Shown here piece by piece: positions 8,967 through 41,536 of a DNA stretch of 50,901 nt. This DNA is from Candidatus Gastranaerophilales bacterium. GTDB taxonomy: Bacteria; Cyanobacteriota; Vampirovibrionia; Gastranaerophilales; Gastranaerophilaceae. Where the stretch lies: contig CANPYB010000001.1 of assembly GCA_947587605.1 (NCBI GenBank), positions 1-50,901 on the forward strand. Direction: 5' to 3'. A program made the translations under genes and the position numbers. The notes under the pieces were generated by a model. It ran no database searches. It worked only from the letters and a program-made list of their open reading frames with translations, and was not told the origin of the DNA. Position 1 is the stretch's first letter; each line of letters starts with the position of its first letter.

Positions 8967-9040
<74 letters not shown>

Positions 9041-9136
9041 TTTTTTGTGTTTATTATTTACAATCGTAACATTTACTTTTATTTTGAGCAATTTTATTTT
9101 TTTACCTTCTTTATTTTCTGCATAGAAAGGAAAAAT

Positions 9137-10090
9137 ATGAAAATATCTGCTATTGGTTCTGACATAAATATCTTTAAGTCTTATACGAACAAGAATGCAC
9201 GATTGAATTTAATTCAAGATACTTTTATAAAATCAAATAATATAAATTTTAAAGGCAGTTCTCAAAACCCGCAATATGATGCACTTAAATCTGAAATGAC
9301 AGATTTGATTATGAATGAGGCAGGTTTTGATTTAAAATCAATAGAAAGAATAATTCAAAAATATTCACCGTCTACAACCTTTGATGATTATAAAAATCTT
9401 CCCAAAAATAACAATACTCATACTTATACTGCAGGATACACTCAGCAGCAGGTTAGCTTCTTGGTAAATGATAGCGGGCATTTAGTTGCAAAATCTTTAC
9501 CGCAAAAAATTTATGTAGCTGTTCCAAATACCTGTGATAAAAATGGCAGAATTATTTTTTTAGACAGAATTTTGCATGAATGTACACATGTTATGCAAAA
9601 TGAAACTTCTAATCATTTATCTTATGAGGATTTTTATAATCAATATTTTAGTAAAATGGATGATGTTGAAAAAGCACTTAATTCATTAAAAGCAGCAAAC
9701 TTTATTTATAACAGTGTCGAAAATGATGCACTTATGATTCTTGCTTATGGAATGAAAGATAAATTTGGTTCATTACCAAAACCAGTTTCTAAATATAAAA
9801 ATGATTTGAACAGTATTTTTATGAAAATAAAGCGTTCAAGTACTAAAACATATTTTACAAGTTTAATTGAAAATAGTGTTAAAAGTTTAGGAAGTAGTGT
9901 TGATAAGCAATTAATTATTGATTTTATAAAATTAAAATCCCAAAATGAAAAAGAGGCATATCAAAATGCGCTTAATTCCGACAAAGAATTGTTAAGTATT
10001 TCGGGATATACTGATTTCGATTTAAGAATTGAACTTTATGAGTCAATAATATCCGCTTGTGAAACCTTATTACAGAATAATAATCAGTAA
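9137..10090 (+). CDS. hypothetical protein with HExxH motif (possible zinc metallopeptidase)
   Basis: Start moved to MKISAIG, preceded by aggaaaaat. Contains LHECTHVMQNE. Its stop codon lies inside the 50-bp island repeat. Confidence 0.5.
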   Translation: MKISAIGSDINIFKSYTNKNARLNLIQDTFIKSNNINFKGSSQNPQYDALKSEMTDLIMNEAGFDLKSIERIIQKYSPSTTFDDYKNLPKNNNTHTYTAGYTQQQVSFLVNDSGHLVAKSLPQKIYVAVPNTCDKNGRIIFLDRILHECTHVMQNETSNHLSYEDFYNQYFSKMDDVEKALNSLKAANFIYNSVENDALMILAYGMKDKFGSLPKPVSKYKNDLNSIFMKIKRSSTKTYFTSLIENSVKSLGSSVDKQLIIDFIKLKSQNEKEAYQNALNSDKELLSISGYTDFDLRIELYESIISACETLLQNNNQ

Positions 10091-10137
10091 ATTATTTAAT
10101 TAAAATACAGCAAGAGCCTAAAATCATAATTGCGCTT
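10088..10137. repeat. left island direct repeat (attL-like)
   Basis: taaattatttaattaaaatacagcaaGagcctaaaatcataattgcgctt. It encodes an orphan copy of the last 14 codons of the EamA gene on the minus strand. Confidence 0.75.
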
Positions 10138-10484
10138 ACAGAAATTTTATGCGATTTTTCGTTTATTATTTTTAAAACATAGTGTTTTTTATATGAGCTA
10201 TACATTAATGAATCAGATATGGAGTTAAATATTCTGCGGTTTATTTGTAAATATCTGTTAATATGTTTTTTCTCCTTTTTCCTTTTTTTTAACGAATGAC
10301 GAGCAGAGGGTGCTTTACAAAAGTTTTGTATATTGATTTAAAGATTTTATTTTTTTTAAAAATAAAAGGTAGCAAAAACTTTAATTTTTGTATTTCTTTA
10401 TGCAATCTGTTTTTTTAAAATTGCTGCTTTAAAGTTTATGAATTATTGCTTTTCAGTAAGTAATTAAAAAAGAAAGGAAAAAAT

Positions 10485-11027
10485 ATGTGTACAGTAGAAC
10501 CAATTAGAAATATGGAAGATTTAAAAAAAATTGAAAAAATCTTAAAAAAACAAAGTTTAAGAAATTTACTATTATTCTTAATTGGAATTAATTGCGGTTT
10601 ACGTATTTCGGACATACTAAATTTGGACGTTAAAGATGTAAAGAATAAAAATTATATAAATATATTTGAGATTAAGACAGGGAAATATAAAAGATTTCCA
10701 ATTAACACGAAACTAAAACCGCTTTTAAAAAAATTTACCAAAGACAGAAATGATGATGAACCTTTATTTATTTCTATTTTTAATAATAGAATGGAACGAA
10801 CTCAATGTTACAGAATCATAAAAAAAGCCTGTCAAGATGCAGGTATAGATTATATTGTCGGAACTCATACTTTAAGAAAAACTTTTGGTTATCATCATTA
10901 TCAGAAATTCAAAGATGTTGCAATATTACAAAAAATATTCAATCATTTCACTCCTCAAGTAACATTAAAGTATATAGGTATAGATCAAGACCGGATAGAT
11001 GAGAGTTATATTAATTTTGTTTTATGA
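10485..11027 (+). CDS. small tyrosine recombinase/integrase (catalytic domain only, 180 aa)
   Basis: Catalytic signature present: GLRISD (R), HTLRKTF (H..R), FNHF (H), TLKYIG (Y). Confidence 0.85.
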   Translation: MCTVEPIRNMEDLKKIEKILKKQSLRNLLLFLIGINCGLRISDILNLDVKDVKNKNYINIFEIKTGKYKRFPINTKLKPLLKKFTKDRNDDEPLFISIFNNRMERTQCYRIIKKACQDAGIDYIVGTHTLRKTFGYHHYQKFKDVAILQKIFNHFTPQVTLKYIGIDQDRIDESYINFVL

Positions 11028-11055
11028 ATATAAATGTTATAAGTTATGGGTAAAA

Positions 11056-11238
11056 TTTATCTCAACAATATTATAGAATTGTTGAGATAAAATTAAAATT
11101 AACTATTTAAGTTTAACACAAAAATTTTTATATTTATAAATTGTTAAATATATTAATAAAATTTTTAACTGCTTAATTTCAGATATAGTTTGTATTCTAC
11201 CAATCTGAGCATACAACAATTCTATAATATTGTTGCAT
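11056..11238. promoter_or_regulatory. candidate invertible switch: two lox-like sites in inverted orientation flanking 129 bp
   Basis: Site 1 (11056-11091): 14-bp arms around spacer attataga. Site 2 (11211-11238): arms around spacer tctataat. The 22-bp cores 11063-11084 and 11214-11235 are exact reverse complements. Confidence 0.5.
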
Positions 11239-11278
11239 AAATTTAAAATTGTTTAATCGCTAAATAATCGGTGGAATA

Positions 11279-12133
11279 ATGGTAAAAGTTTCAATTATAA
11301 TACCTTGTTATAATCAAGGACAGTATGTTGCCGAAGCAATTAATTCCGCATTATCACAGACATACTCGGATATAGAAATAGTATGTATTAATGACGGTTC
11401 AACAGATAATACTCATAAAATAATTAAGAGTTTTGCAGATAAGTATAAAAATATATTATACATTAACAGTGAGAAAAATAATGGTGTAATTTATTCACGA
11501 AACACTGCAATTAACGCCTGTCATGGTGAGTATATATTACCATTAGATGCAGACGATAAAATAGAGTCTGCTTATGTAGAGAAGGCAGTAAAAATATTAG
11601 ATACTAATCCTAATATTGGGATTGTTTACTGCAAAGCAAGAATATTTGGCAAAAAAAATAGAAATTGGAAATTAAAAAAATTCAATAAATCTGACATATT
11701 ATATGAAAACTGTATTTTTAACACCGCATTGTTCAGAAAATCAGATTTTTTAAAAGTCGGAATGTATAAAAATTACATGATGAATGGTATGGAAGATTTT
11801 GATTTATGGCTTTCATTTATTGAACAAGGTCTTGATGTTTATCAAATTGATGAAGTTTTGTTTTATTATCGTAAATATGACCAAGAAACGAGAACACAGA
11901 TATTCCAAAAAAATCAAAATGAAATTTGGCTGTCGGTAATCAAAAATCACATAAATTTATATTTAAATGATAGACAATTTCTTGAAAGACTTATATTTTC
12001 TAAACCGTTAGAAGCAAGGAAAAAATATAAAAAATACAAAAACATTTTTTATATTTTACTTGCAATAACTGCTATTGAGTTAATGATAATTCTAATCTTT
12101 ATAATTACCTTAGTTTGGAGGGGTAATGTATAA
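11279..12133 (+). CDS. family 2 glycosyltransferase
   Basis: VSIIIPCYNQGQYVAEAINSALSQTY, INDGSTDNT and LDADD motifs, with a C-terminal TM segment. Confidence 0.85.
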   Translation: MVKVSIIIPCYNQGQYVAEAINSALSQTYSDIEIVCINDGSTDNTHKIIKSFADKYKNILYINSEKNNGVIYSRNTAINACHGEYILPLDADDKIESAYVEKAVKILDTNPNIGIVYCKARIFGKKNRNWKLKKFNKSDILYENCIFNTALFRKSDFLKVGMYKNYMMNGMEDFDLWLSFIEQGLDVYQIDEVLFYYRKYDQETRTQIFQKNQNEIWLSVIKNHINLYLNDRQFLERLIFSKPLEARKKYKKYKNIFYILLAITAIELMIILIFIITLVWRGNV

Positions 12134-13439
12134 AGAAAAGGTTTTTATTATAACCCAGAATGAAATTGTAAATACTACAGGCGGAGCTATTACATCTTTT
12201 ACAGATATTTCTAAATTTCTTTGCGAAAAATATGATGTATATGCTATTTGCTATACAAAAGAAACCCGAAATCCTAATTTAGATGAAAGAATTAAATTTA
12301 TAAATTTATACAATTATTATGGAGGCAGAAATACATTTTCAAAGGCTATAAATCTTTTTATTAAAGAGAATAGACCGTCTATTATTCTTTTTTTCTTTGC
12401 ATATTTATATGTTAATGCAAAATTGTCTAAAAAATATAATGATATTCCAAGAATATTATTATTTAGGTCAAGACCTGATTTTTATTTTGCGGTACATAAA
12501 AAAACAAAACATTTAAAAGATATATATATTAATACAATTTCACAAATTTTATTTCCAAGCTATCACAAATTATTACCCGAATATATAAGGAATAAAAATG
12601 TTGTTTGTATTCCAAATCCAACGAAATCGGTATTAAAATATATAAATACCGATGCGGAAAATAAGAAAATAATATATTTAAGCCGAATAGACTGTTGGAA
12701 AGGTCATGAATTTTTAATAAAGTCTTTTGCTCTGATTGCAAATAAATATAAAGATTGGACTATTGATATATACGGGCAGTCTCAGCCGCCGGAGCTTGAG
12801 CTGCAATTAAAGAAACTCGTTAAATCTCTGCACTTGGAAAATCAAATTCATTTTTGCGGAGTGACGAAAAATCCGTTTGAAACATTCATAAACTATGATT
12901 TTTGTGTATTTCCGTCTTATTTTGAGGGATTTCCCAATGGACTTTCAGAAGCGTTAAGCGTAGGTTTGCCTGCGGTCGGATTTAAAGGTGCCAGCGGTGT
13001 AAATGAATTAATTATTGATAATAAGAACGGGCTTTTGGCAGAAGAAGACTATAGCGATTTTGCTGAGAAAATTGAAATTTTAATAAATGATAAGAAATTG
13101 CGTTCTAAATTTAGTCAAGAAGCAGTTAAATCAATGAAAAAGTATGATTACAATATTATAAAAGATACTTGGATTAATCTGATAAATGAAACATTAAGCA
13201 ATAAGTGTACGGAACAGAGTAAGGAATTATATTCGGTTTCAGAAAAGTATGAATTATTTTCCATTAATAAATTACTTTCTATGCAAAATTCAAACATGAA
13301 ATTTTCATATCGTAATTTTGCAGAAAAAATATTTTCTATAAAAAATTATTACTCAAATTCCTGTAAGAAAATTTTAACAATATTAGGAATGAAAATAACA
13401 ATAAAAAAGCAGTTAAAGGAGAACGGGAGTGGGTATTAG
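12126..13439 (+). CDS. family 4 (GT-B, Glycos_transf_1) glycosyltransferase
   Basis: FPSYFEGFPNGLSEALSVGLPAVG motif. RBS ggagg; 8-nt overlap with the upstream gene. Confidence 0.85.
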   Translation: MYKEKVFIITQNEIVNTTGGAITSFTDISKFLCEKYDVYAICYTKETRNPNLDERIKFINLYNYYGGRNTFSKAINLFIKENRPSIILFFFAYLYVNAKLSKKYNDIPRILLFRSRPDFYFAVHKKTKHLKDIYINTISQILFPSYHKLLPEYIRNKNVVCIPNPTKSVLKYINTDAENKKIIYLSRIDCWKGHEFLIKSFALIANKYKDWTIDIYGQSQPPELELQLKKLVKSLHLENQIHFCGVTKNPFETFINYDFCVFPSYFEGFPNGLSEALSVGLPAVGFKGASGVNELIIDNKNGLLAEEDYSDFAEKIEILINDKKLRSKFSQEAVKSMKKYDYNIIKDTWINLINETLSNKCTEQSKELYSVSEKYELFSINKLLSMQNSNMKFSYRNFAEKIFSIKNYYSNSCKKILTILGMKITIKKQLKENGSGY

Positions 13440-14184
13440 TATAGGAATTATCGGCTGTGGATTTATTGGCGGAGCATTAAAAAAATGGATAGAAGAACAC
13501 AATCCGTCAATTAATATTTTGGTTTCAGATCCGCCAAAGGGAATGAATGATGATGTTTCAAAAGCTGATGCGATATTTATCAGTATTCATATTCCGACCG
13601 AGAAAAACGGAACACAAGATTTAACGCTGTTAAAAGAAATAATCGAAAATCTGCCTTTGAAAAAACCGATATTCATAAGAACGACAATAACTCCCGGCAC
13701 ATCAGACAGATTATCAAAAGAAACAGGCAGGCATGTATATTTTATGCCGGAATTTTTAACGGAACGAACAGCTTATGAAGATTTTTGTTCTCAGCCTATG
13801 GTGTTTACTGCAGAACCGGAATTACTAAGTTTGATTTTTAAAGGTAAAAAACACATAGAAATGTCTTCCTTAGAGGCAGAAATTACGAAATATGCGCACA
13901 ATGTATTCGGCGCATTAAAGGTAACATATTTTAACGGAATTTATGACTTATGCAAGAGATATGAGGCAAATTACAGAAAAATTCAACAAGGAATTTTATT
14001 AAGCGGATATATAAATACACCACACACACAAGTTCCCGGTCCTGACGGCAAATTCGGATACGGAGGCAAATGTTTTCCTAAAGATGTAAATGCGTTTACA
14101 AAAATTACGGAAGGACTTCCGCTGCACAGTTTATTAAAGGAATTACAACCTTTAAATATTAAATTTAGAGGTGAAGATAAATAA
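13429..14184 (+). CDS. compact UDP-glucose/GDP-mannose dehydrogenase-like protein
   Basis: Rossmann motif IGIIGCGFIGG, PEFLTERTAYEDF (cf. NPEFLREG) and catalytic-Cys motif GGKCFPKD. At 251 aa there is no C-terminal nucleotide-sugar-binding domain. Confidence 0.6.
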   Translation: MGISIGIIGCGFIGGALKKWIEEHNPSINILVSDPPKGMNDDVSKADAIFISIHIPTEKNGTQDLTLLKEIIENLPLKKPIFIRTTITPGTSDRLSKETGRHVYFMPEFLTERTAYEDFCSQPMVFTAEPELLSLIFKGKKHIEMSSLEAEITKYAHNVFGALKVTYFNGIYDLCKRYEANYRKIQQGILLSGYINTPHTQVPGPDGKFGYGGKCFPKDVNAFTKITEGLPLHSLLKELQPLNIKFRGEDK

Positions 14185-15203
14185 TGAAAGTATTAGTTAC
14201 GGGTAGTGCAGGGTTTATAGGTTATTTTGTTGCGTTGAGACTGCTAAAAGCAGGCTATACCGTTATTGGTATTGATAATGTTAATGATTATTATGATGTT
14301 AATTTAAAAGAAGCGCGGCTTAAAAATTTACATCAATTTGAAAATTTTATAGAAGAAAGAATAGATTTAGTTGATAGAATAAATTTAGAACGTATTTTTA
14401 AAGAGCATAAACCACAAAGAGTTTTAAATTTAGCTGCCCAGGCAGGAGTAAGATATAGTTTTGAAAATCCGTATGCTTATATAGATTCAAACATTACAGG
14501 TTTTGTAAATATAGAAGAACAGTGCAGACATAATGATGTTAAGCATTTTGTTTTTGCTTCAACCGCCTCAATTTATGGGGCAAATAAAAAAATGCCATGG
14601 GATGAAACAGACGGCTGTAATCATCAATTAAGTTTGTATGCAGCGACAAAAAAAGCAAATGAAGTAATAGCACATTCTTATGCGCATTTATTTAATATCC
14701 CGACAACGGGGTTAAGATTCTTTAATGCATATGGGCCCTGGGGCAGACCGGATATGGCTTTATTTATATTCGTAAAAAATATTATTGAAGGAAAACCTAT
14801 AAATGTATTTAATAATGGTCAAATGATTAGAGATTTTACTTATGTAGAAGATATTGCCGAGGGTGTTTGTAAAGTGCTTTTAGGGAAAGTTCCCGAAATT
14901 GATGAAAGTTGGAATGGGAATTCAGCTGTTCCTGACCCGTCTTCAAGCGGAGTAGCACCTTTTAAAATTTATAATATAGGGAATTCTCATCCTGTTGAAC
15001 TTATGCGGTATATAGAGCTTATGGAAAAAGAAATAGGCAAAAAAGCTATTATAAACTATATGCCGATACAACCGGGAGAAGTAGTTAAATCTGAAGCTGA
15101 TAATTCTGATCTTTATAAAAATTTTGATTTTAAACCTAAGGTGAATGTTGAAGAAGGTGTTCACAACTTTGTTAAATGGTATCGGGAATTTTATGGGAAG
15201 TAG
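14184..15203 (+). CDS. NAD-dependent epimerase, UDP-glucuronate 4-epimerase-like
   Basis: MKVLVTGSAGFIGYF, the YAATKKANE (YxxxK) motif, and the DNVNDYYDVNLKEARL signature typical of UDP-GlcA epimerases. Confidence 0.8.
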   Translation: MKVLVTGSAGFIGYFVALRLLKAGYTVIGIDNVNDYYDVNLKEARLKNLHQFENFIEERIDLVDRINLERIFKEHKPQRVLNLAAQAGVRYSFENPYAYIDSNITGFVNIEEQCRHNDVKHFVFASTASIYGANKKMPWDETDGCNHQLSLYAATKKANEVIAHSYAHLFNIPTTGLRFFNAYGPWGRPDMALFIFVKNIIEGKPINVFNNGQMIRDFTYVEDIAEGVCKVLLGKVPEIDESWNGNSAVPDPSSSGVAPFKIYNIGNSHPVELMRYIELMEKEIGKKAIINYMPIQPGEVVKSEADNSDLYKNFDFKPKVNVEEGVHNFVKWYREFYGK

Positions 15204-15206
15204 TTT

Positions 15207-15704
15207 ATGAAAATATTTAAAAAAATAAAATTTTACGACGGAAAAACAGAAATATTTTTATTTAACATAAAAGTATTTTCATACAGAAAAAAAGTTAATA
15301 ACGGATATGACAATGCCGAATACGTAAGGAGACTTGGCGTAAAAGTCGGTGAAAATACATATATTTGTTCCGGCTGTATATGGGGAAGTGAACCTTATTT
15401 AATTGAAATAGGAAAAAATTGTTTGTTATCGATAAACATAACTTTTTTAACTCATGATGCGTCGGTTCATGTGTGTAAACAGTATTTCTCCCAATCATAT
15501 ACAAGTGCAAACGCTGAAAATAATGCAATTTTTGGAAAAATCAAAATAGGGGACAATTGTTTCATTGGTTGTTCGTCAATAATTTTGCCGAACATAACTA
15601 TAGGAAATAACTGTGTAATTGGTGCAGGAAGTGTAGTGACAAAAAATATTCCCGATGGTGAAGTTTGGGGGGGGGCAGCCAGCTCATTATATAAAGAAAA
15701 CTAA
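15207..15704 (+). CDS. hexapeptide-repeat sugar O-acetyltransferase, C-terminus set by a G9 tract
   Basis: Left-handed beta-helix repeats (IGDNCFIGCSSIILPNITIGNNCVIGAGSVV). The G9 tract at 15667-15675 falls in the VWGG motif. Confidence 0.8.
   Translation: MKIFKKIKFYDGKTEIFLFNIKVFSYRKKVNNGYDNAEYVRRLGVKVGENTYICSGCIWGSEPYLIEIGKNCLLSINITFLTHDASVHVCKQYFSQSYTSANAENNAIFGKIKIGDNCFIGCSSIILPNITIGNNCVIGAGSVVTKNIPDGEVWGGAASSLYKEN
15667..15675 (+). repeat. homopolymeric G9 tract (candidate slipped-strand phase-variation site)
   Basis: Counted directly: tttGGGGGGGGGcagcc. Confidence 0.9.
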
Positions 15705-15865
15705 GGAATTAGCTGAAAAAATAGAAAATATTTTAAACAGCAGTGAACAGCTGGAACTGCAAAATATTATACAACAGCGGAACAGGAGTATGAAATAAAT
15801 AAACAAGGAAAATTAAGAATGAAAAAATACATAACAGGAGCAAAAGTATATAAAGGAGATTGTTT

Positions 15866-16727
15866 ATGTCGTTAAAAAAAGAAATTTTTTCAATAAGTAA
15901 CAAAATAATAAATAACAAGTCATATAAAGAAATTAAAATTTTGGGTATAAGATTAAGGTTTAAATCGAATCTTTCAAGACCATATAAATTTAAGGTAAAT
16001 TCAAAATATTTATCTAATAAATCAAAATTAGATCCATTCAAATATGATGACGATATGAATGATTTATACACATATTTTTTAAATTCTAATGATAAAAGTA
16101 TTGATAAAATGCATCATTACTTTCACATTTATAATAATCATTTTGAAAAATTCAGAAATAAACCCGTAAATATTTTGGAAATAGGAGTTTGCAAAGGAGG
16201 TTCTTTGCGAATGTGGAAAAAATATTTTGGAGAAAAATGCCATATATATGGGGTTGATATAGACCCTGCCTGCAAACAATATGAAGATTTAGAAAATAAT
16301 ATACATATTATGATTGCAGACCAGGGAAATCTAAAATCAATGCAGGATTTAATGAAACAGCTTCCCCAAATAGATATATTAATAGAAGATGGCGGGCATA
16401 CAACAAATCAGCAAATAACAACATTCGAAGCCTGCTACGATAAAATTTCCGATCTGGGGGGGGGTATATTTGGTAGAAGATTTGCATACTAACTATTGGA
16501 CAGAATTTATTGACTCCAAAAATACTTTTGTTGAATATGCAAAAGAACATATTGATGCTCTTAATGCCTGTTTCTTTAATTCAAATGACAGGTATAGAAG
16601 TTTGGAGGGAAAAGACAATTTGGAAGTTCCGTTATTTACTTGTATCACAGATAGCATTTCTTTTTATAACTCAATAATTGTTTTTACAAAAAAGAGAAAT
16701 TCAATTCCATTAAGTGAAAGAAGATAA
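15866..16727 (+). pseudogene. class I SAM-dependent (sugar O-) methyltransferase split by a frameshift at a G9 tract (phase-OFF state)
   Basis: Track ORFs 15860-16492 and 16470-16727 are two halves of one enzyme. LEIGVCKGGSLRMW and IEDGGH lie upstream, VEDLHTNYW downstream, and G8 would fuse them. ATG at 15866 with RBS aaggag. Confidence 0.8.
16456..16464 (+). repeat. homopolymeric G9 tract (candidate phase-variation site)
   Basis: Counted directly: gatctGGGGGGGGGtatatt. Confidence 0.9.
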
Positions 16728-16800
16728 AATCGGGTAGTCAGTATAAAACAAGGAAAAAATAAGAAAAATTTTAGAAAAATAAAAAAAGGAGCGATGTAAT

Positions 16801-17943
16801 ATGCAAAATGAAAATATGATACCTTTATTTAAAGTTTTTGTATCAAAAGATATAGATAAACCGTTACTTGAAACTATTCATAGCGGATGGATTGGCGAAG
16901 GACCGAGGGTTCAAGAATTTGAGGCGGTTTTGAAAAAATATTTTGGAAATGATAATTTGGTAACTTTAAATTCGGGTACATCGGGTCTGCATTTGGCTTA
17001 TCATATGGCATTACATCAAAATGATTATAAAGGTTATTATAATTCAAATGTAGATGAAATAATAACTACCCCTATTACCTGTACAGCAACAAATACTCCA
17101 ATTTTATGTAACGGAGCAAAAATAATTTGGGCTGATGTTGATCCTGTGACCGGTTCAATATCACCTGAAGATATAGAAAACAAAATAACTAAAAATACAA
17201 AAGCTGTTACAATGGTTCACTGGGGTGGTAATCCTTGTGATATAGATAAAATTAATGAAATTGCTCATAAAGCAGGAATTATGACAATAGAAGATGGTGC
17301 GCATTCTATGGGGATGGAATATAAAGGTAAAAAATTCGGCAACCATTCAGATTTTTCTGTTAATTCGCTTCAAGCAATTAAACATGTAACTTCTGTTGAC
17401 GGAGGTTTATTATGGATGAAATCTGAAAAAGATTATCAACGAGCAAAACTTTTAAAGTGGTATGGAATAGATAGAACAATAAGAGAAGGTATAGATTTAA
17501 GATGTGAAATAGATGTTCCGGAAGCCGGATACAAATTTCATATGAATGATGTTTGTGCATTAATAGGAAATGTTAATTTTAAACATTTACCGGAACTTCT
17601 TAAAAAACACAGAGATAATGCTAAATTTTATGATAAAGCATTTAAAAACTGTTCAAATGTTCTGCCTGTTTTGGAAAATCCTAACGGCAAATCTGCTTAT
17701 TGGCTGTATACAATTCATGTCGATAACAGAGACGAATTAATGCAAAAGTTAAAAAGTTTAAATATTATGTCTTCAAAAGTTCATGCAAGAAATGATACTC
17801 ACTCAATGTTTTCTGAATTTAAGTCCGAATTACCGGGAGTTGAAGCATTTAATAGAACACACTTATGCATTCCCGTAGGTTGGTGGGTAAGTGAAAACCA
17901 AAGAGAATATATTGCTGAACAAGTTATAAAGTATGCAAAGTAG
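16801..17943 (+). CDS. DegT/DnrJ/EryC1/StrS-family PLP-dependent sugar aminotransferase
   Basis: 380 aa with typical family layout: the IEDGAHSMG motif and a lysine region SLQAIKHVT. Confidence 0.85.
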   Translation: MQNENMIPLFKVFVSKDIDKPLLETIHSGWIGEGPRVQEFEAVLKKYFGNDNLVTLNSGTSGLHLAYHMALHQNDYKGYYNSNVDEIITTPITCTATNTPILCNGAKIIWADVDPVTGSISPEDIENKITKNTKAVTMVHWGGNPCDIDKINEIAHKAGIMTIEDGAHSMGMEYKGKKFGNHSDFSVNSLQAIKHVTSVDGGLLWMKSEKDYQRAKLLKWYGIDRTIREGIDLRCEIDVPEAGYKFHMNDVCALIGNVNFKHLPELLKKHRDNAKFYDKAFKNCSNVLPVLENPNGKSAYWLYTIHVDNRDELMQKLKSLNIMSSKVHARNDTHSMFSEFKSELPGVEAFNRTHLCIPVGWWVSENQREYIAEQVIKYAK

Positions 17944-17955
17944 GGGTGACTGTTA

Positions 17956-18585
17956 ATGAAAAAAATTCGAAGAAAATTAATCAATACGTTATTTAAAAAT
18001 AATATATTATATACAAGGCTTTATGTTTTTTTTCTTTATTTGAGTAAAAAGGAACTGAATTTGAATTTATGCTCCGGAACTTTATATGAAAAGGGCTGGA
18101 TAAATATTGATGAAAACGGTTCAAATAAAGTTGACTTGATTATGAATATAGTTAATATAAATAAATTTTTTAAAAAAAATTCAATAAAGAATATAAAAAT
18201 TATTCATGGACTTTCATATCTTAGATTTCATGAGGCTATAGATTTTTTGCAGTCTTGTTATAATTTGCTGGAAATTAAGGGGGGGGGGAAAATTATCATA
18301 GAATTTCCCGAAGTGAAAAAACTTTCAAATAGCATTATTAATATAAATTCTTTGTATGATGAAAAAAATTATTATGATTACATTGAAGCACTTCGTGCTT
18401 TTTATGCTTTTGATTTAGACCAGCATAAGAAAAAAGTTAAATATACTACATATAGATTTGGCTGGTCTGCAATGCATATTAAGTATGAATTGGAAAAACT
18501 TTCATATAAAAATATTGAAATAAAAAATCCGGAATATCACGATAAGAGATTAAATCGTGATGTCAGAATTGAAGCTCGGAAATAA
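17956..18585 (+). CDS. class I SAM-dependent methyltransferase-like protein carrying an in-frame G10 tract
   Basis: LNLCSGTLYEKGWINID (motif I-like) and LLEIKGGGKIIIEFP (post-I/III-like). The GGG is encoded by the G10 tract. Confidence 0.6.
   Translation: MKKIRRKLINTLFKNNILYTRLYVFFLYLSKKELNLNLCSGTLYEKGWINIDENGSNKVDLIMNIVNINKFFKKNSIKNIKIIHGLSYLRFHEAIDFLQSCYNLLEIKGGGKIIIEFPEVKKLSNSIININSLYDEKNYYDYIEALRAFYAFDLDQHKKKVKYTTYRFGWSAMHIKYELEKLSYKNIEIKNPEYHDKRLNRDVRIEARK
18279..18288 (+). repeat. homopolymeric G10 tract (candidate phase-variation site, currently in frame)
   Basis: Counted directly: attaaGGGGGGGGGGaaaatt. Confidence 0.9.
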
Positions 18586-18650
18586 AATGTACGGCAATTC
18601 TTTATAAAAATAGCCGATAATATTTAAATTTATGCGGATAGGATAAAACT

Positions 18651-19577
18651 ATGTTAAAAGATAAAAAAATAAATTTTATAACATCAACAGATGAAAATAC
18701 AGGTTCAACAAGAATTAGAGTATATGACTTAGTAAGAGAGTTAAAAAAAAGGGGCTATAATGTAACAATTAATGATAGTTCAAAAAAATCTGAAATCGTA
18801 GTATTTCAAAAAAGTAATTATAAATATTTAAGAAAACGTTTTTTTAAACTTTTGTTTAGTAATAAATTTTTAATATTTGATATTGATGATTTGTTTTTTG
18901 ATAAAATATTAAATCTTGTTAAATATTCGGATTTTGTTATTACAAGCTGTGAATATATGAGGGAACAATATTTAACATTTAATAAAAATATAGGAGTTCT
19001 GGGGGAAACACCTGATGTAATTGCGGAGGATATACCACTGCGAAATCCTATTGCAAATTTAAAGGAATGTAAGATAGGATGCTTTGGTACATCGTATAAT
19101 ATAACTTTGATAAAAAAATTCAATATAAAAGATGTTAAAATAATCACTCGAGGCGGGGATATTGAGTGGAGCAGAGAAACAGTTGATTATGATATCCAAA
19201 AATTTGATTTAATTGTAATTCCTCAAGAAAAAACTCCCGAAGGATTAGCAAAAGATAACTGCAGAATGTTAAAAACTCTTTATCTTGGTGTTCCTGCATT
19301 GGTTAGTGATATTCCGGAATACGTTAAACTTGCGGAGCTTGTAAATTATCCAAAAGAATTTATTGTACATGATGGTGAAGACTGGAACGAAAAAATTGAA
19401 AAAATAAAATCCGGTGAAATCAAGTTTGATTTTGATTTTGAAAAATGCAGAGAAATATTATACAAAAATTACAGTACAAAGGTAAGGACTGATATGTGGC
19501 TGGAAATTGTTTCAAGACATTATACTCAGCATAATCTAAAAAGACATTTGAAAAAGTTGTTCTTTCATTTGTTTTAG
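18651..19577 (+). CDS. putative glycosyltransferase (GT-B-like), weak call
   Basis: 308 aa. The C-terminal segment LGVPALVSDIPEYVKL resembles the GT4 donor-binding region. Last gene before the right repeat. Confidence 0.4.
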   Translation: MLKDKKINFITSTDENTGSTRIRVYDLVRELKKRGYNVTINDSSKKSEIVVFQKSNYKYLRKRFFKLLFSNKFLIFDIDDLFFDKILNLVKYSDFVITSCEYMREQYLTFNKNIGVLGETPDVIAEDIPLRNPIANLKECKIGCFGTSYNITLIKKFNIKDVKIITRGGDIEWSRETVDYDIQKFDLIVIPQEKTPEGLAKDNCRMLKTLYLGVPALVSDIPEYVKLAELVNYPKEFIVHDGEDWNEKIEKIKSGEIKFDFDFEKCREILYKNYSTKVRTDMWLEIVSRHYTQHNLKRHLKKLFFHLF

Positions 19578-19613
19578 TTTGTGCTTTTAATCAAAGTTAT
19601 TTAAAAATATTTA

Positions 19614-19663
19614 TAAATTATTTAATTAAAATACAGCAAAAGCCTAAAATCATAATTGCGCTT
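19614..19663. repeat. right island direct repeat (attR-like), overlapping the EamA gene 3' end
   Basis: taaattatttaattaaaatacagcaaAagcctaaaatcataattgcgctt, 49/50 identical to 10088-10137. Confidence 0.75.
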
Positions 19664-20472
19664 CCAATCAGTTTTTTTATAAGGTTTTGTTCGTGGAAGA
19701 TTTTATATCCGAATATAACCGTAACAACAGAGGAAAGCTGAAACAGTGCTAATGCGCAGCCGACATTTATATACTTGAATACATAATTTGTTGAATATTG
19801 CATTATTCCAAGGCATATTGCAATCAATACGCACTCTGCCAAATCTTTATATGCGTCAAGTTTATATTTCTTTCTTGTAATGCAGATAAAAATAATTGTC
19901 CAAAATAAGCCGACGAAACACCATAATATAAAGCAAATCTTAACGGAAGAAAGTATTATTATTTTTTTTAACAAAGCTGCTTCCGTTCCCGTTAACAATA
20001 GTGCTAAAAGTCTGTATTGAATATCTTTTCGTTTAAACAGTTTTAAGGAAAATCCCTCATCGCAGTTTTCAAATACAAATTTACTTCCCCAAACAATAAG
20101 TGCCATTCCGATAAATCCTAAAAAAGAGGGGATTTCTTTTAATAAAAAGAGCGAAGCCAAAAATCCTATTACGCATTTATATGAGTTTATAGGCCCCATT
20201 ACGGATAATTCGCCTATGCTAACTGCTTTTATGGCGCATAATGTTCCGAGTGAACATAATAATCCCGCTGTAAATACGGTCAGCCAAAAGGATATATTGT
20301 AATTTTCGAATGTAACTCCCTTTAATAAGGGCAAAGATATTATGCTTAAAAAAAGGTAGCTGTATAAATTTATTGTTAATGAAGAATTATCGTTTGACAG
20401 TTTTTTTTGAAATACGTTTGCAATCGGGTTAGACAGTATTCTTAATATTACAAATGATATTAATTTGAGCAT
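19618..20472 (-). CDS. EamA/DMT-family transporter
   Basis: 284 aa with about 10 TM segments in two similar halves. Confidence 0.75.
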   Translation of the reverse strand: MLKLISFVILRILSNPIANVFQKKLSNDNSSLTINLYSYLFLSIISLPLLKGVTFENYNISFWLTVFTAGLLCSLGTLCAIKAVSIGELSVMGPINSYKCVIGFLASLFLLKEIPSFLGFIGMALIVWGSKFVFENCDEGFSLKLFKRKDIQYRLLALLLTGTEAALLKKIIILSSVKICFILWCFVGLFWTIIFICITRKKYKLDAYKDLAECVLIAICLGIMQYSTNYVFKYINVGCALALFQLSSVVTVIFGYKIFHEQNLIKKLIGSAIMILGFCCILIK

Positions 20473-37936: not shown

Positions 37937-39082
37937 ATGGAAAAGAAGAAAGAATCATATAAGTTTATTGATTTATTTGCAGGAGCAGGTGGCTTGAGCC
38001 TTGGTTTAGAACAAGCGGGTTTTCAAGTGGCTTTTGCCAATGAAATTAATCCTACATGCGCTGAAACATATTTGTATAATAGAAATTTATCTAGTGACCA
38101 AATTTTTGTTGGTGATATAAATGACCTTATAAAAAACATTAATAAATATAAAAAGTATTTTAATGATGTTTCTTTGGTATGCGGTGGTCCCCCCTGTCAA
38201 GGCTTTTCCATGGCGAACAGGCAGAGATTAATAGATGACCCCAGAAACAAATTATATAAAAGTTATTTAGAATTTTTGAGTAACATTGTGCCTAAATTTT
38301 TTATTATGGAGAATGTTAAAGGCATGGCAAATAAAATTGATGAGATATTAGAAGATTTTCACAATCAACTTGGAAATCAATATAATATTGAATATAGAAT
38401 ACTTAATGCAAAAGACTTTGGAATTCCGCAAAATAGAGAACGTCTTTTTATTATTGGTAATAGAATTGGAATTAAGTCAAAAGATATATTTGATGAAGTT
38501 GAATTATATAAAGTTGTTGATCAAGTAACTTTAGGTAATGCTATTTTAGATTTACCAAAATTAAAACCTAATAAATTAAAAAATAATACGGATTATGAGG
38601 ATGATGATTGCGGATATTTTGAAAAAAATTATAACTATACAAAAACTAATTTTTATAATTTTATAAATAATGGTCGAACTATAACAAAGTTATATAATCA
38701 CAAAAGCAGATATAATAATGAAAGAGATATAAAAATATTCGGGTTGTTACCGCAAGGTTGTAATTCTCTTCATGAATCTATAAAAGATATTATGCCTTAT
38801 CAAAGCAGAAATAATATTTTCAAAGATAAATATTTTAAACTGTCTGAAAATAACATTTGTAAAACAATCACATCTCATATGAAATTTGACTGTAACATGT
38901 ACATTCACCCAACACAAGCAAGAGGTTTATCTCCAAGAGAGGCAGCACGAGTGCAAACATTTCCTGATGATTATGTCTTTAAAGGTCCTCAAAATAGTTG
39001 GTATATGCAAATTGGCAATGCAGTGCCTGTTAAATTGGCTGAGGTAATAGGAAAATGTATAATAAACAAAATAAAGAATTAA
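37937..39082 (+). CDS. DNA (cytosine-5) methyltransferase 1
   Basis: Motif I DLFAGAGGLSLG, IV GGPPCQGFS, VI ENVKGM, VIII QNRERLFIIG, X QIGNAVPV. Confidence 0.95.
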   Translation: MEKKKESYKFIDLFAGAGGLSLGLEQAGFQVAFANEINPTCAETYLYNRNLSSDQIFVGDINDLIKNINKYKKYFNDVSLVCGGPPCQGFSMANRQRLIDDPRNKLYKSYLEFLSNIVPKFFIMENVKGMANKIDEILEDFHNQLGNQYNIEYRILNAKDFGIPQNRERLFIIGNRIGIKSKDIFDEVELYKVVDQVTLGNAILDLPKLKPNKLKNNTDYEDDDCGYFEKNYNYTKTNFYNFINNGRTITKLYNHKSRYNNERDIKIFGLLPQGCNSLHESIKDIMPYQSRNNIFKDKYFKLSENNICKTITSHMKFDCNMYIHPTQARGLSPREAARVQTFPDDYVFKGPQNSWYMQIGNAVPVKLAEVIGKCIINKIKN

Positions 39083-40164
39083 AACATTTAGAACTATTTG
39101 CAGGAATAGGTGGATTTCGCCTTGCTCTTGAATTACTGGGCAAAGATTTTGGCATTGATATGAATTGTGTCGGTTATTCTGAAATAGATAATTATGCTGC
39201 TCAAAGTTATAAGGCTAATTTTGATACAGATAATAATGTTGAAATTGGGGATATTGTTAGCTTTACAGAAAACAAAAAGAATATAAAAAATTTACAAGAT
39301 TTTTCTTTATTGACAGGGGGATTTCCTTGTCAAGCATTTAGTATGATGGGATTACAAAAGGGATTTAAAGACTTACGCGGAAATGTATTTTTTAAGATAA
39401 TTGATATTCTAAATGAAAAACATCCTAAAATGATTTTATTAGAAAATGTTAGAAATTTAATTTCTCATAATAAAGGTGAAACATTTAAAACCATAGTAAA
39501 TCTAATTAGGAATACCGGATATAATGTTTATTTTGATGTTTTTAATACAAATAATTTTGGATTAGCTCAAACAAGAAATCGTGTATTTATATTGGCTTTC
39601 CGAAAAGATTTAAATATACCGAGAGATTTTGATTTTACTCAAGAAATTGTTAAAATATCGTTTGATAGGATAAAAACAAAAACTTCATTACAGCTACAAA
39701 ACAATGTTTTAGATGTATTAGAAAAGAATGTAGAAGACAAATATTATATTTCGGAGATACTAAAACCAACTATATTGTCAAATGGGACAAAAAACTTTTC
39801 AAGTAAATCAGAAATAAATCCTATAATCGCGAAACCACTTACTGCTACTATGGTAAAAATGCATAGAGCCTGCCAAGATAACTATTTTAGTGATGATTTT
39901 ATTCATTGCAAAAATCCAATCAAATATAAAGAAAAAGAATATACAATGGAGCAGTTATTAAAGAAAAGGATAAGAAAAATCACTCCGCTTGAAGCACTAA
40001 ATTTTCAAGGTTTTCCTAAGTCATATTGCGTAAATGCACAAAAAACGGGTGTTAGTAACCATCAATTGTACAAACAAGCAGGAAATGCAGTTAGTGTCAA
40101 CACTGTATATGCAATATTATATTATTTACTTATTGAAAAGGATGTATTGGAATTTAAATCATGA
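39055..40164 (+). CDS. DNA (cytosine-5) methyltransferase 2
   Basis: Motif I ELFAGIGGFRLA, IV GGFPCQAFS, VI ENVRNL, VIII QTRNRVFILA, X QAGNAVSV. 28-nt overlap with methyltransferase 1. Confidence 0.95.
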   Translation: MYNKQNKELKHLELFAGIGGFRLALELLGKDFGIDMNCVGYSEIDNYAAQSYKANFDTDNNVEIGDIVSFTENKKNIKNLQDFSLLTGGFPCQAFSMMGLQKGFKDLRGNVFFKIIDILNEKHPKMILLENVRNLISHNKGETFKTIVNLIRNTGYNVYFDVFNTNNFGLAQTRNRVFILAFRKDLNIPRDFDFTQEIVKISFDRIKTKTSLQLQNNVLDVLEKNVEDKYYISEILKPTILSNGTKNFSSKSEINPIIAKPLTATMVKMHRACQDNYFSDDFIHCKNPIKYKEKEYTMEQLLKKRIRKITPLEALNFQGFPKSYCVNAQKTGVSNHQLYKQAGNAVSVNTVYAILYYLLIEKDVLEFKS

Positions 40165-41267
40165 TGGATAACTTTTTTAAATTGCACAATGAAAAAATAA
40201 TAGGTTTTAAGGCATTAACATATGCAGATTTGGGGAAAAGTAGTACAAGTAACCAAACTCATATAGGTTTATTTGATGATGTATTAACTTTTTTGCCTAA
40301 TCAGCCAATTGTTGAAGATATGGCAATGTTTATCTATAATTCAAAAGCAGATATTTTGAGTTTAAATTTTGATAGAATAGAGAATAAAGACGGTTCTTTT
40401 AGAAGTCCTAAAATAAGAATTGGAGGAAGAAATACAGTATCAATTGTTTCTACCATAAGAAGTATTGCACGAGAATCAGATGATTCTTTGACGTGGTACT
40501 TATTTTGGTTCGGTTTAGAAAGTGAACAGGCTGTTTTTTGGTTATTTAACAATATGTCCCAAACATATGCAGATATTACTAATTTGGGATTATCTTTGAA
40601 TTACAATTCAAAAGGACGTCTTACTGAAAGGGATTCAATATTTAATAAAATACTTTTATATATAGAAAGTGATATAGATAGATCTACCGAAAGTGTTATG
40701 CGAGAATTAGAGATAGAAACACAAATTCCCGGTAAATTAATCACTGAACGAAAAATAAGAAAATATGATGTTCATAGAGCTCAAAAATTGTTTACCGAAA
40801 TAGGTAAACAAGGAGAAGAATTTGTTGCAGAATATTTTGATAAATTGAAATATAATAATCAAATTAAAAATTATAGTTGGCTAAATAAATCATCAGAAAG
40901 TGGGTTCCCGTATGATTTTTATTATCAAGATTTATCAGATAATGTTATATATTTAGATGTAAAGACAACAAAATTTGATTTTAAACAAAGAATTATATAC
41001 AGCAATAAGGAAATAGAATTTGCACTATCATTGCCAAATAATTGCTACAATATATATCGAGTTTATAATTTAACAGAAATAAATGCAAATTTGCGTATAT
41101 GTAGAAATTGTGCAAATTATTTTAATTCAATAAATGGAAATATTTTAACAATTCAAAGAAATCTAAATAGTATCAATACGGATATTCAATCAATAAGTAT
41201 TTCATTTGAACCTACCGTATCTAATCTTGAATTTGATACAGAAATTTTATTAGAAAAAAACAATTAA
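40161..41267 (+). CDS. putative restriction endonuclease with C-terminal DUF3883-like PD-(D/E)XK domain
   Basis: ATGA overlap with methyltransferase 2. The C-terminus GKQGEEFVAEYF...GFPYDFYY...IYLDVKTT...SNKEIEFA...YNIYRVYNL fits the DUF3883 pattern. Confidence 0.6.
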   Translation: MMDNFFKLHNEKIIGFKALTYADLGKSSTSNQTHIGLFDDVLTFLPNQPIVEDMAMFIYNSKADILSLNFDRIENKDGSFRSPKIRIGGRNTVSIVSTIRSIARESDDSLTWYLFWFGLESEQAVFWLFNNMSQTYADITNLGLSLNYNSKGRLTERDSIFNKILLYIESDIDRSTESVMRELEIETQIPGKLITERKIRKYDVHRAQKLFTEIGKQGEEFVAEYFDKLKYNNQIKNYSWLNKSSESGFPYDFYYQDLSDNVIYLDVKTTKFDFKQRIIYSNKEIEFALSLPNNCYNIYRVYNLTEINANLRICRNCANYFNSINGNILTIQRNLNSINTDIQSISISFEPTVSNLEFDTEILLEKNN

Positions 41268-41340
41268 TAAATTATAACTAATTTTTCTCATAAAACTTAA
41301 CCAAGTATAAAATTTTTAAACTACATAACATTCAAAAAAT

Positions 41341-41357
41341 AAACCCGTCTGTTCAAC
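41341..41357. repeat. right copy of the 17-bp direct repeat, immediately downstream of tRNA-Ser
   Basis: aaacccgtctgttcaac. On the minus strand it is part of a hairpin plus T-run following the tRNA. Confidence 0.7.
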
Positions 41358-41373
41358 CCGGGCGGATTAAAAA

Positions 41374-41460
41374 CGGAGAAGGGGGGATTCGAACCCCCGG
41401 CAGAGTTGCCCCTGCACAAACGTTCCAGGTTTGCACCTTAAACCACTCGGACACCTCTCC
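41374..41460 (-). tRNA. tRNA-Ser (anticodon GGA)
   Basis: 87 nt. Acceptor ggagagg/cttctcc, anticodon loop ctggaac, long variable arm, T arm ggggg-ttcgaat-ccccc. Confidence 0.9.
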
Positions 41461-41536
41461 GTATAGGTTTAATCTATTTTAACGGATTAAATCTTTATTG
41501 TAAATACAAATTTTTACTTTTTTGTATAATTATTTT

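Follow-up and report, generated by a model that had tools for sequence, protein, structure and literature searches.

An att-flanked island of a Gastranaerophilales bacterium, probably for glycan decoration and under two layers of phase variation

The T1-antigen switch of Salmonella depends on the FimB-like recombinase STM0716, which flips a 269-bp promoter segment located before a glycan cluster (PMC11294581). A locus of similar layout was found in the stretch of DNA analyzed here (the window), which comprises positions 1 to 50,901 of contig CANPYB010000001.1 from Candidatus Gastranaerophilales bacterium (assembly GCA_947587605.1). The element under study is an island flanked by attachment-site (att) repeats, consisting of 10138-19613 plus one repeat copy, and it is probable in our judgment that its glycan-decoration operon stands under two layers of phase variation, namely a promoter segment inverted by a tyrosine recombinase of 180 amino acids (aa) and three poly-G tracts inside genes. 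With the FimB/FimE switches (T1 antigen, E. coli fimS) the locus shares a recombinase of ~180-200 aa that lacks an N-terminal domain and whose gene directly precedes a short segment; this segment is bounded by inverted repeats and is followed by the controlled operon, and the T1 operon also makes a surface glycan. Unlike in these switches, the sites in the window are 22-bp dyad-symmetric CAAC-N14-GTTG elements instead of 9-bp inverted repeats, the core measures 129 bp instead of 269-314 bp, and the host belongs to the Melainabacteria. In addition, many homologous operons begin with a gene for a catalytically dead recombinase paralog, and the switch in the window is placed on an att-flanked island with poly-G tracts.

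In Bacteroides, a serine invertase of global reach (Mpi) and larger tyrosine recombinases of the Tsr type act on many loci, whereas one dedicated 180-aa recombinase lies beside each switch of the present type. In the capsular polysaccharide loci of Bacteroides, invertible promoters switch glycan operons and mixed orientations are found in metagenomes (PMC8375218). The two systems have in common a gut commensal host and a surface glycan operon that is turned ON or OFF, in the window probably, through promoter inversion. The second layer resembles the Campylobacter phasome, for which PMC6321876 describes G8-G11 tracts in glycan-modifying genes (methyltransferases, transferases) of an AT-rich genome, one-base toggling of the reading frame and tract lengths that vary between populations. 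The differences from Campylobacter are the phylum, the location of the tracts under a putatively invertible promoter on a small mobile island, and tract positions that are not conserved between related modules.

Islands that integrate at a gene or tRNA gene 3' end are known, as are integrase-less att-flanked elements of the cis-mobilizable (CIME) type. As in such 3'-end islands, the target 3' end was duplicated and the gene regenerated, the site was empty in close relatives, and the composition was slightly deviant. Unlike in them, neither a cognate full-length integrase nor a related autonomous element on the same attB was found, and the lone recombinase was invertase-like. In function the locus comes nearest to the T1-antigen switch among the FimB/FimE systems and also resembles Bacteroides invertons and Campylobacter poly-G tracts; it differs in the recombinase family, the type and length of the sites, the lineage and the combination on an island. 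No glycan phase variation, invertons of this kind or homopolymer contingency loci were found in the literature on Melainabacteria, Gastranaerophilales or Vampirovibrionia, in which subscription journals were thinly covered.

The recombinase and its putative invertible segment

The recombinase gene begins 348 bp inside the left repeat (attL), close to the 350 bp given by the first-pass annotation, which had taken the enzyme for the integrase of the island. The latter assignment was not supported. The protein matched PF00589 (E=1.8e-26) over residues 11-166 with the catalytic set R-K-HxxR-H-Y intact, and among solved structures only the catalytic (C-terminal) halves of XerA, XerH and IntI4 could be aligned with it. 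An N-terminal DNA-binding domain, either arm- or core-binding, was absent. The FimB/FimE models for 'tyrosine-type DNA invertase' were the only NCBIfam models that aligned nearly end to end, with scores of 41.8 and 53.8 bits that lay far below the cut-offs of 221 and 222 (NF007370 / NF007371). The recombinase therefore appears FimB/FimE-like in its working, yet a member of a separate family. This family gave 6216 matches at E<1e-5, and the best 120 had identities of 69-82% and, with few exceptions, a length of exactly 180 aa. The recombinase of the window itself recurred in one other contig only (L001, 1576 nt), where it was 100% identical. No characterized integrase of about 180 aa is known to us. 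Because the enzyme has inverted sites of its own outside the att repeats, and homologous segments occur in both orientations, we conclude from sequence comparison that it is a promoter invertase and not the integrase.

The sites lie between the end of the recombinase gene at 11027 and the start of the family 2 glycosyltransferase (GT2) gene at 11279, and they form a perfect 22-bp inverted repeat (22/22), CAACAAT-N8-ATTGTTG, spanning 11063-11235. Each site is composed of two inverted half-sites (7-10 bp dyad) around an asymmetric 8-bp spacer, and the spacers of the two sites are exact reverse complements of each other. Such a structure is built like the core site of a tyrosine recombinase, and the arrangement of the spacers is the configuration predicted to give inversion. 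CAAC-N14-GTTG occurred at exactly two places in the window, and neither the motif nor its half-sites were present in or around the att repeats. A weak third match at 41684, with 2 mismatches and inside a PLD gene, was taken as chance. A scan of JGI metagenomes with the 22-mer arm gave two chance single-copy matches in transporter-like coding sequence that was otherwise unlike the window.

The contexts of seven recombinase relatives (P0010, P0061, P0015, P0019, L051, P0002 and L053) were compared with that of the window. The recombinases of P0010, P0061, P0015 and P0019, each represented by several assemblies, were 73-78% identical to that of the window and showed the same order, in which the recombinase gene is followed after 26-40 nt by CAAC-N14-GTTG sites, lying within a gap of ~170-430 bp, and then by a nucleotide-sugar/glycosyltransferase operon. 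L051 (a single IMG/VR contig, 77% identical) had paired sites of this kind past the recombinase gene, at +41 and +190, and the inverted repeats of L053 (61% identical) differed in sequence. Both orientations of the segment occurred in three of the four groups with several assemblies, in different metagenome assemblies with an identical recombinase within each group. Thus, L014 6734-6922 was the reverse of L015 6922-6734 (97.9%) between flanks that were ~99% collinear, with 4 assemblies in one orientation and 6 in the other; L032 gave a 99.3% reverse match to L033, L035 and L038 (5 vs 3 assemblies); and L026 gave a 100% reverse match to L027-31, accompanied by a deletion. The sequence exchange in these homologs fell within the central spacer. 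Since the inverted repeats are far shorter than assembly k-mers, each homolog orientation is presumably read-backed. Inversion is shown for the homologs, and the switch in the window probably works in the same way.

Inside the segment, a T-run-GTG(A/T)TA element was conserved in 6 systems including the window, at a distance of 35-38 nt (29 in L051) from a CAAC site. It faces outward through its CAAC site and flips with the segment, and it would provide the promoter predicted within the invertible segment of the window. If this element (T-run-GTGTTA in the window) is a promoter, the assembled orientation corresponds to operon OFF. The element was missed by a -35/-10 scan, and sigma-70 scans were not used for ON/OFF calls.

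A perfect TATAAT was also noticed in the 8-bp spacer of each site, reading outward (11223-11228 on the plus strand and 11070-11075 on the minus strand). A site arm could accordingly supply a -10 box, and the invertible segment would give or withhold the element upstream of it. A dead recombinase paralog was encoded by the first gene past the switch in three homolog systems (L011 6891-7346, L026 10715-11242 and L032 10741-11271). These paralogs were ~150-176 aa long and ~35% identical, had lost Arg-I and both His, and carried Phe in place of the Tyr nucleophile; they might bind the sites and thereby bias or lock the switch. No dead paralog gene was present in the window. In the P0061 group, the switch and its glycan operon were located directly behind Mu-like phage genes (L014-L023, 1-6000), including sheath, tube, Portal_Mu, Mu_F, tail_S, several DNA methyltransferases and a PAPS reductase-like gene, which raises the possibility of a prophage-borne phase-variable module for glycan modification. 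The switch of this group contained three sites, two direct and one inverted, and therefore more than two states would be possible.

Small recombinases of Firmicutes phages (phi3626 ORF46 and the phi105 and phBC6A52 homologs) have the same size as the enzyme of the window and are 46-52% identical over the full length. Unlike the window gene, they are placed at the boundary of early and late genes, after an ArpU-type regulator and before HNH/terminase genes, and not before a glycan operon. The Bacillus phage homolog followed the ArpU-type regulator and preceded HNH and terminase; ORF46 was located near cos, past the early genes, and the attP annotated in phi3626 lies 11 kb off, as does a distinct integrase of 349 aa (ORF22). 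Because phi3626 keeps a separate integrase at attP, the subfamily does not seem to be an integration enzyme even in mobile elements. The phage homologs are annotated as integrase or recombinase only, and we know of no demonstrated function for phage recombinases of ~180 aa. Directly after ORF46 (L048, 3548-3663), a 12-bp inverted repeat, GAACACAACATA / TATGTTGTGTTC, with copies 92 bp apart and with CAACAT half-sites, was observed upstream of the HNH/cos/terminase region, and phi3626-like phages may contain an unrecognized invertible element.

Poly-G tracts and the probable glycan-decoration operon

G/C runs of at least 7 nt occurred exactly three times in the window (G9, G9 and G10), all of them inside island genes. 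The longest other run was 6, and the chance expectation for runs of at least 9 was ~0.005. Neither these tracts nor the invertible switch had been remarked on in the first-pass annotation. In the acetyltransferase gene, the G9 frame stopped at 15704 (165 aa), as against a computed 196-197 aa with the canonical WGGQPA C-terminus at G8 or G11. The methyltransferase gene was frameshifted at its tract into the open reading frames (ORFs) 15860-16492 and 16470-16727; at G8 or G11, the computed product of 288-289 aa spanned positions 1-104 of the 105 in the Methyltransf_24 profile. The orf209 gene was in frame at G10, and the other lengths tested (G8-G12) gave 114-125 aa. The assembled states were thus a truncated acetyltransferase, methyltransferase OFF and orf209 ON.

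Differences in tract length were observed between two copies of a related cargo module, L040 and L041, which were 99.95% identical over 8.5 kb and differed by only two indels, both in poly-G. The DegT tract was G11 (split) in L040 vs G10 (intact) in L041, and the tract of the hexapeptide gene was G10 (intact) in L040 vs G11 (split) in L041; it was G11 in L042. Similar tracts were found in other recombinase-linked operons (L011/12 and L026-28), and backbone loci were nearly free of them. The pattern is, as far as sequence can tell, that of slipped-strand contingency loci, and slippage is likely to occur at the tracts of the window as well. Further tracts (C9, C8/G8 and C10) were seen in or beside glycan genes of other Gastranaerophilales-like loci, at L006 759-767, L011 9831-10016 and L026 18770-18779, and tract content and gene calls differed between L011 and L012 at the tract spot. 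Poly-G/C contingency tracts appear to be general in glycan operons of this type.

The genes of the island (Table 1) probably form one co-directional operon encoding three glycosyltransferases together with enzymes for an amino/acetamido-deoxy sugar and for methylation. The first-pass annotation had listed GT2 and GT4 glycosyltransferases, dehydrogenase-like and epimerase-like sugar nucleotide enzymes, an acetyltransferase, two methyltransferases, a DegT aminotransferase and a further glycosyltransferase-like protein; the list stood at the family level, except that orf209 could not be confirmed as the second methyltransferase. The single-sequence AlphaFold model of orf209 (predicted local distance difference test score, pLDDT, 45) was too poor for use. 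The further glycosyltransferase-like protein, orf308, matched no Pfam family, and its AlphaFold2 model (pLDDT 92.9) was related by Foldseek to BshA, GT4, HepE and PimA at TM-scores of 0.6-0.66. The dehydrogenase-like protein, of the UDP-Glc/GDP-Man dehydrogenase family, was without the C-terminal nucleotide-sugar-binding domain. The same short form (251-257 aa, 76-89% identity) was encoded in L040 (4827-5600) and L044 (6299-7054). A reading of this ORF as a pseudogene was rejected, because the Rossmann and catalytic-Cys motifs were kept and the short form recurred in the two other modules. NCBIfam supplied an equivalog-level name for none of the cargo proteins, and the sugar product is therefore not specified.

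In agreement with the first-pass annotation, which had recognized no Wzx/Wzy, initiating transferase or export genes and had proposed a decoration set, no Pfam or NCBIfam match to a flippase, polymerase, exporter or initiating transferase was obtained, and the cargo proteins contained at most one transmembrane-like (TM-like) segment. The cargo does not make up a self-sufficient polysaccharide locus of the Wzx/Wzy or ABC type. With flippase, polymerase and initiating transferase all lacking, the island most likely decorates an existing surface glycan.

Table 1. Positions of the island features and flanking genes in the window.
Feature	Coordinates	Strand	Remarks
HExxH-motif ORF	9047..10090	+	HECTH motif; left backbone flank; likely true start near 9137
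attL	10088..10140	.	Orphan duplicate of the 3' end of EamA; core of 50 bp, 53 nt including 2 mismatches; repeat position 27 is G
Island left end	10141..10484	.	344 bp, non-coding, ORFs <=59 aa; P' arm side of the inferred attP
Tyrosine recombinase	10485..11027	+	180 aa, catalytic domain only; inferred switch invertase
Left site	11060..11087 (core 11063-11084)	.	TCTCAACAAT-ATTATAGA-ATTGTTGAGA; 35 nt past the recombinase stop
Invertible core	11085..11213	.	129 bp between the two sites
T-run-GTG(T)TA element	11112..11124	-	Extended -10-like; points at the recombinase gene
Right site	11214..11235	.	CAACAAT-TCTATAAT-ATTGTTG; exact reverse complement of the left core
GT2 glycosyltransferase	11279..12133	+	PF00535 E=1.6e-38; heads the operon; truncated copy in L044, 73% identical
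GT4 (GT-B) glycosyltransferase	12126..13439	+	PF00534 E=2.7e-29; identity 73% (L044) and 53% (L040)
Short nucleoside diphosphate (NDP)-sugar dehydrogenase-like protein	13429..14184	+	251 aa; Rossmann GxGxxG and GGKCFPKD Cys motifs
Short-chain dehydrogenase/reductase (SDR) NDP-sugar epimerase/4,6-dehydratase	14184..15203	+	PF01370 E=3e-53; below equivalog cut-offs
Hexapeptide sugar acetyltransferase	15207..15798	+	Profile matches
Poly-G tract 1	15667..15675	+	G9, acetyltransferase gene
Methyltransf_24 methyltransferase	15860..16727	+	Split by a frameshift at the tract
Poly-G tract 2	16456..16464	+	G9, methyltransferase gene; OFF frame at present
DegT/PseC-type pyridoxal phosphate (PLP) sugar aminotransferase	16801..17943	+	PF01041 E=4e-77; L040 copy 85% identical
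orf209	17956..18585	+	In frame at G10
Poly-G tract 3	18279..18288	+	G10, orf209
orf308, GT-B-fold glycosyltransferase-like	18651..19577	+	Last gene of the island; small family, 30 proteins
attR	19614..19666	.	Repeat copy = genuine EamA 3' end; A at repeat position 27
EamA/DMT transporter gene	19618..20472	-	Pfam EamA; right backbone flank; last 46 nt = attB

Borders, empty sites and origin of the island

The island had been described in the first-pass annotation as an insertion between two 50-bp direct repeats with one mismatch, the right copy being the last 14 codons and stop of the EamA gene and the left an orphan abutting the stop of the HExxH gene, with unrelated sequence outside and the gene regenerated by the element. 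The description was borne out throughout. The repeats at 10088-10137 and 19614-19663 matched in 49/50 positions (G10114 vs A19640) and could be extended to 10088-10140 and 19614-19666 with 51/53 matches (2 mismatches), beyond which the neighboring sequences on the left and right were unrelated. Chance was excluded for a 49/50 match in 50.9 kb, and the other repeat pairs of more than 40 nt in the 8-22 kb region of the window reached ~80% identity at most. The EamA stop codon (19618-20) and the last 14 codons lie in attR. The left copy opens on the TAA stop (10088-10090) of the HExxH ORF, for which no Pfam family was matched, and the EamA frame does not continue after it. Among the examined loci the repeat was present only at EamA 3' ends, so that occurrence at unrelated loci, which the first-pass annotation had named as an argument against integration, was not seen. 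Matches to the reconstructed attP were likewise limited, in these loci, to attB and attL copies, and the 344-bp left end of the island was similar to none of them except the identical contig L001.

The empty site that the first-pass annotation had proposed to look for was found in two related Gastranaerophilales genomes, L002 and L003, in which the EamA and HExxH genes were convergent with a single att copy between them. In L002 the alignment ran from 30289 to 19614 of the window at 97.5% identity and then passed straight to 10137 and on to 9025; L003 showed the same jump across the island position at ~87% identity. The HExxH proteins at these empty sites were 83-89% identical to that of the window. 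None of the island genes was present at the corresponding loci of L002, L003 and L007 (85-97% identity). From the empty sites with one repeat copy in two relatives it follows that the insertion is real, and it looks like site-specific integration.

The mismatches within the repeat suggested where the crossover took place. At repeat position 27, attL carries G, as does the attB of L002, L003 and L007, and attR carries A; at position 51 the pattern is converse. Because of these converse patterns, the crossover is placed between repeat positions 28 and 50, and the A of attR at position 27 would be derived from attP. The polymorphism at both positions fits conservative site-specific recombination. 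In composition, the island was lower in G+C (GC) than the remaining window (28.4% vs 32.0%), and GC at third codon positions (GC3) was also lower. The comparison of G+C with the flanks that the first-pass annotation had proposed thus gave a difference in the expected direction, of modest size (~1.6 SD). Neither the island nor those parts of the window that were surveyed yielded a second recombinase, and the 344-bp left end showed no integrase remnant. The integrase of the island would thus not be encoded in the present island and has presumably acted in trans or been lost.

Related cargo modules were found elsewhere without a recombinase gene. The L040/L041 module lies between tRNA-Arg(CCT) and tRNA-Arg(TCT) (L040 3290-3363 and 11224-11299) and adjoins the same Metallophos-HTH-Pth backbone as the left flank of the window, and the L044-46 module lies directly past tRNA-Ile (L044 4349-4424). 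The identities of their proteins to the cargo of the window were mosaic, ranging over 33-89% (DegT 85% vs 33% and the dehydrogenase-like protein 76% vs 89% in L040 vs L044). The mosaic identities indicate that modules shuffle at tRNA-linked hotspots. No att-like sequence was found at the borders of these modules.

Competing explanations and wider context

In the explanation that we favor, the strain-specific island would have entered by conservative site-specific recombination of attP with a 50-bp attB that includes the last 46 nt of EamA. The recombinase would bind the two inverted 22-bp sites, exchange strands in the asymmetric 8-bp spacer and flip the 129-bp segment, so that the promoter-like element is turned toward or away from the operon, with the assembled state, away, being OFF. 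The poly-G tracts would change in length through slipped-strand mispairing, and the acetyltransferase, the methyltransferase and orf209 would each be toggled on their own. Together, the two layers would permit up to eight ON variants besides a single OFF state.

Several observations weigh against this explanation. The switch of the window was seen in one orientation only, in two identical assemblies (the window and L001). Scans with the sigma-70 consensus found no excess of promoter-like sites over shuffled sequence in this AT-rich DNA. P0002, 82% identical on an 864-nt contig, was without CAAC-N14-GTTG in the 180 bp past the gene, and L040, through common backbone synteny, was the only homolog-bearing contig tied to the lineage of the window. 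Only one assembly gives the tract lengths of the window, and assemblies can miscall the length of homopolymers. For the integration, no integrase, circular junction or second element on the same attB was found, so that it is read from the footprint alone, and the deviation in GC was only ~1.6 SD below windows of the same size.

It is unlikely that the adjacent recombinase is the integrase of the island at the EamA 3' end, perhaps serving as integrase and invertase at once. Its gene occupies the usual place of an integrase inside attL, members of the family edge variable glycan cassettes on the 5' side in several genomic contexts, and tyrosine recombinases with simple sites, such as Cre, can integrate, excise or invert according to site orientation. 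Against this stand the missing arm- and core-binding domain, the lack of the motif and its half-sites in attL, attR and their surroundings, the lack of direct repeats around the homolog cassettes within the available sequence, the related cargo modules that move without a recombinase gene, the separate integrase that phi3626 keeps at its attP, and the fact that, to our knowledge, no integrase of this size has been characterized. The specific version in which the 180-aa enzyme does both, flipping the promoter and moving the cassette at the EamA 3' end with host factors, is quite unlikely as well. If true, the island would be a minimal self-mobile 'phase-variation cartridge', and the large recombinase family, including its phage members, would constitute a new class of minimal recombinases that both integrate and invert. 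Still more doubtful is the idea that the 22-bp elements are hairpin terminators, operators or a fossil switch before a constitutively wired operon. Each element is indeed a dyad of 7-10 bp, potentially able to fold into a hairpin directly past the recombinase gene, and no second orientation was seen at the locus. Hairpins or operators have, however, no need of spacers that are exact reverse complements; the arms of a fossil should decay, and here they are identical in 22/22 positions next to an intact recombinase; the homologous sites recombine; and no T-tract terminator was called at the sites.

As for the origin of the island, an ancestral island deleted between the repeats in the relatives, or a duplication by illegitimate recombination, with no mobile integration in either case, has very little probability. 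RecA-mediated deletion between 50-bp repeats would also leave a single copy, and the lack of an integrase or circular form agrees with such an event. A single gain is nevertheless more parsimonious with the island absent from the three closest genomes (L002, L003 and L007); its GC and GC3 are below those of the backbone, related cargo lies beside tRNA genes at other loci in other species, and a deletion would still require an earlier event that duplicated exactly the 3' end of a gene. It is just as improbable that the poly-G tracts and their length differences are artefacts of sequencing or assembly. Long homopolymers are error-prone and each state is that of a consensus assembly, but G9-G11 runs were confined to glycan-modification genes, both in the window and in assemblies independent of it (L040-43, L011/12 and L026-28), the sequences flanking the tracts were identical across samples, and the alternative lengths restored canonical C-termini and full domain coverage.

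The Gastranaerophilales (Melainabacteria), a non-photosynthetic and uncultured group related to cyanobacteria, are common inhabitants of the guts of animals and humans, and almost nothing is known of their cell surface or of how they handle host immunity and phages. The locus indicates bet-hedging as in Bacteroides, Salmonella and Campylobacter, achieved with parts of their own, namely a large, previously unnamed family of 180-aa putative invertases with a recognizable 22-bp site, often a dead paralog, and poly-G tracts in modifying enzymes. A glycan module with several switches could therefore travel as a small att-flanked island. Metagenomes may be searched for such switches with a simple rule, namely a gene for a 180-aa PF00589 protein that has CAAC-N14-GTTG within ~40 nt of its stop codon, and the motif could serve for scoring ON/OFF ratios in vivo. 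The same logic may hold for the small recombinases of Firmicutes phages, which are ~50% identical and placed before late genes.

The flanks of the island were variable in some neighboring genomes and stable in others. The LigA-decarboxylase-radical SAM-EamA synteny was conserved across Gastranaerophilales, and the related genomes obtained by an EamA search of species-representative genomes were mostly metagenome-assembled genomes from rabbit gut. At the L002 empty site, identity was 97.5% toward EamA and fell to 90.7% toward HExxH (window 9025-10137 vs L002 10627-11739), and therefore the HExxH gene would evolve faster than its neighbors or was itself exchanged. In L007 (410-2980), HExxH was replaced by two genes that probably make up a restriction-modification pair, one for a C5 DNA methyltransferase of 466 aa and one for a protein of 264 aa; the breakpoint falls within the att repeat (~position 14), and the C-terminus of EamA there is different and longer. 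Because L007 carries other genes in place of HExxH, the interval from tRNA-Arg(TCT) to EamA appears to be a variable spot, or swap hotspot, of the species group. At the well-sampled EamA ortholog P0229 of another species, the downstream region was stable without variability at the 3' end, and attB is therefore not a general hotspot in the order. An Rfam scan found only the flanking tRNA-Arg, and exact-sequence look-ups with EamA, HExxH and GT2 gave no match.

A second low-GC block of the window (37937-43282, 25-28% GC) surrounds tRNA-Ser (41373-41461). It contains genes for two adjacent C5 cytosine methyltransferases, a NOV_C-domain protein and a PLD-family nuclease-like protein, and it is a candidate restriction/defence island.

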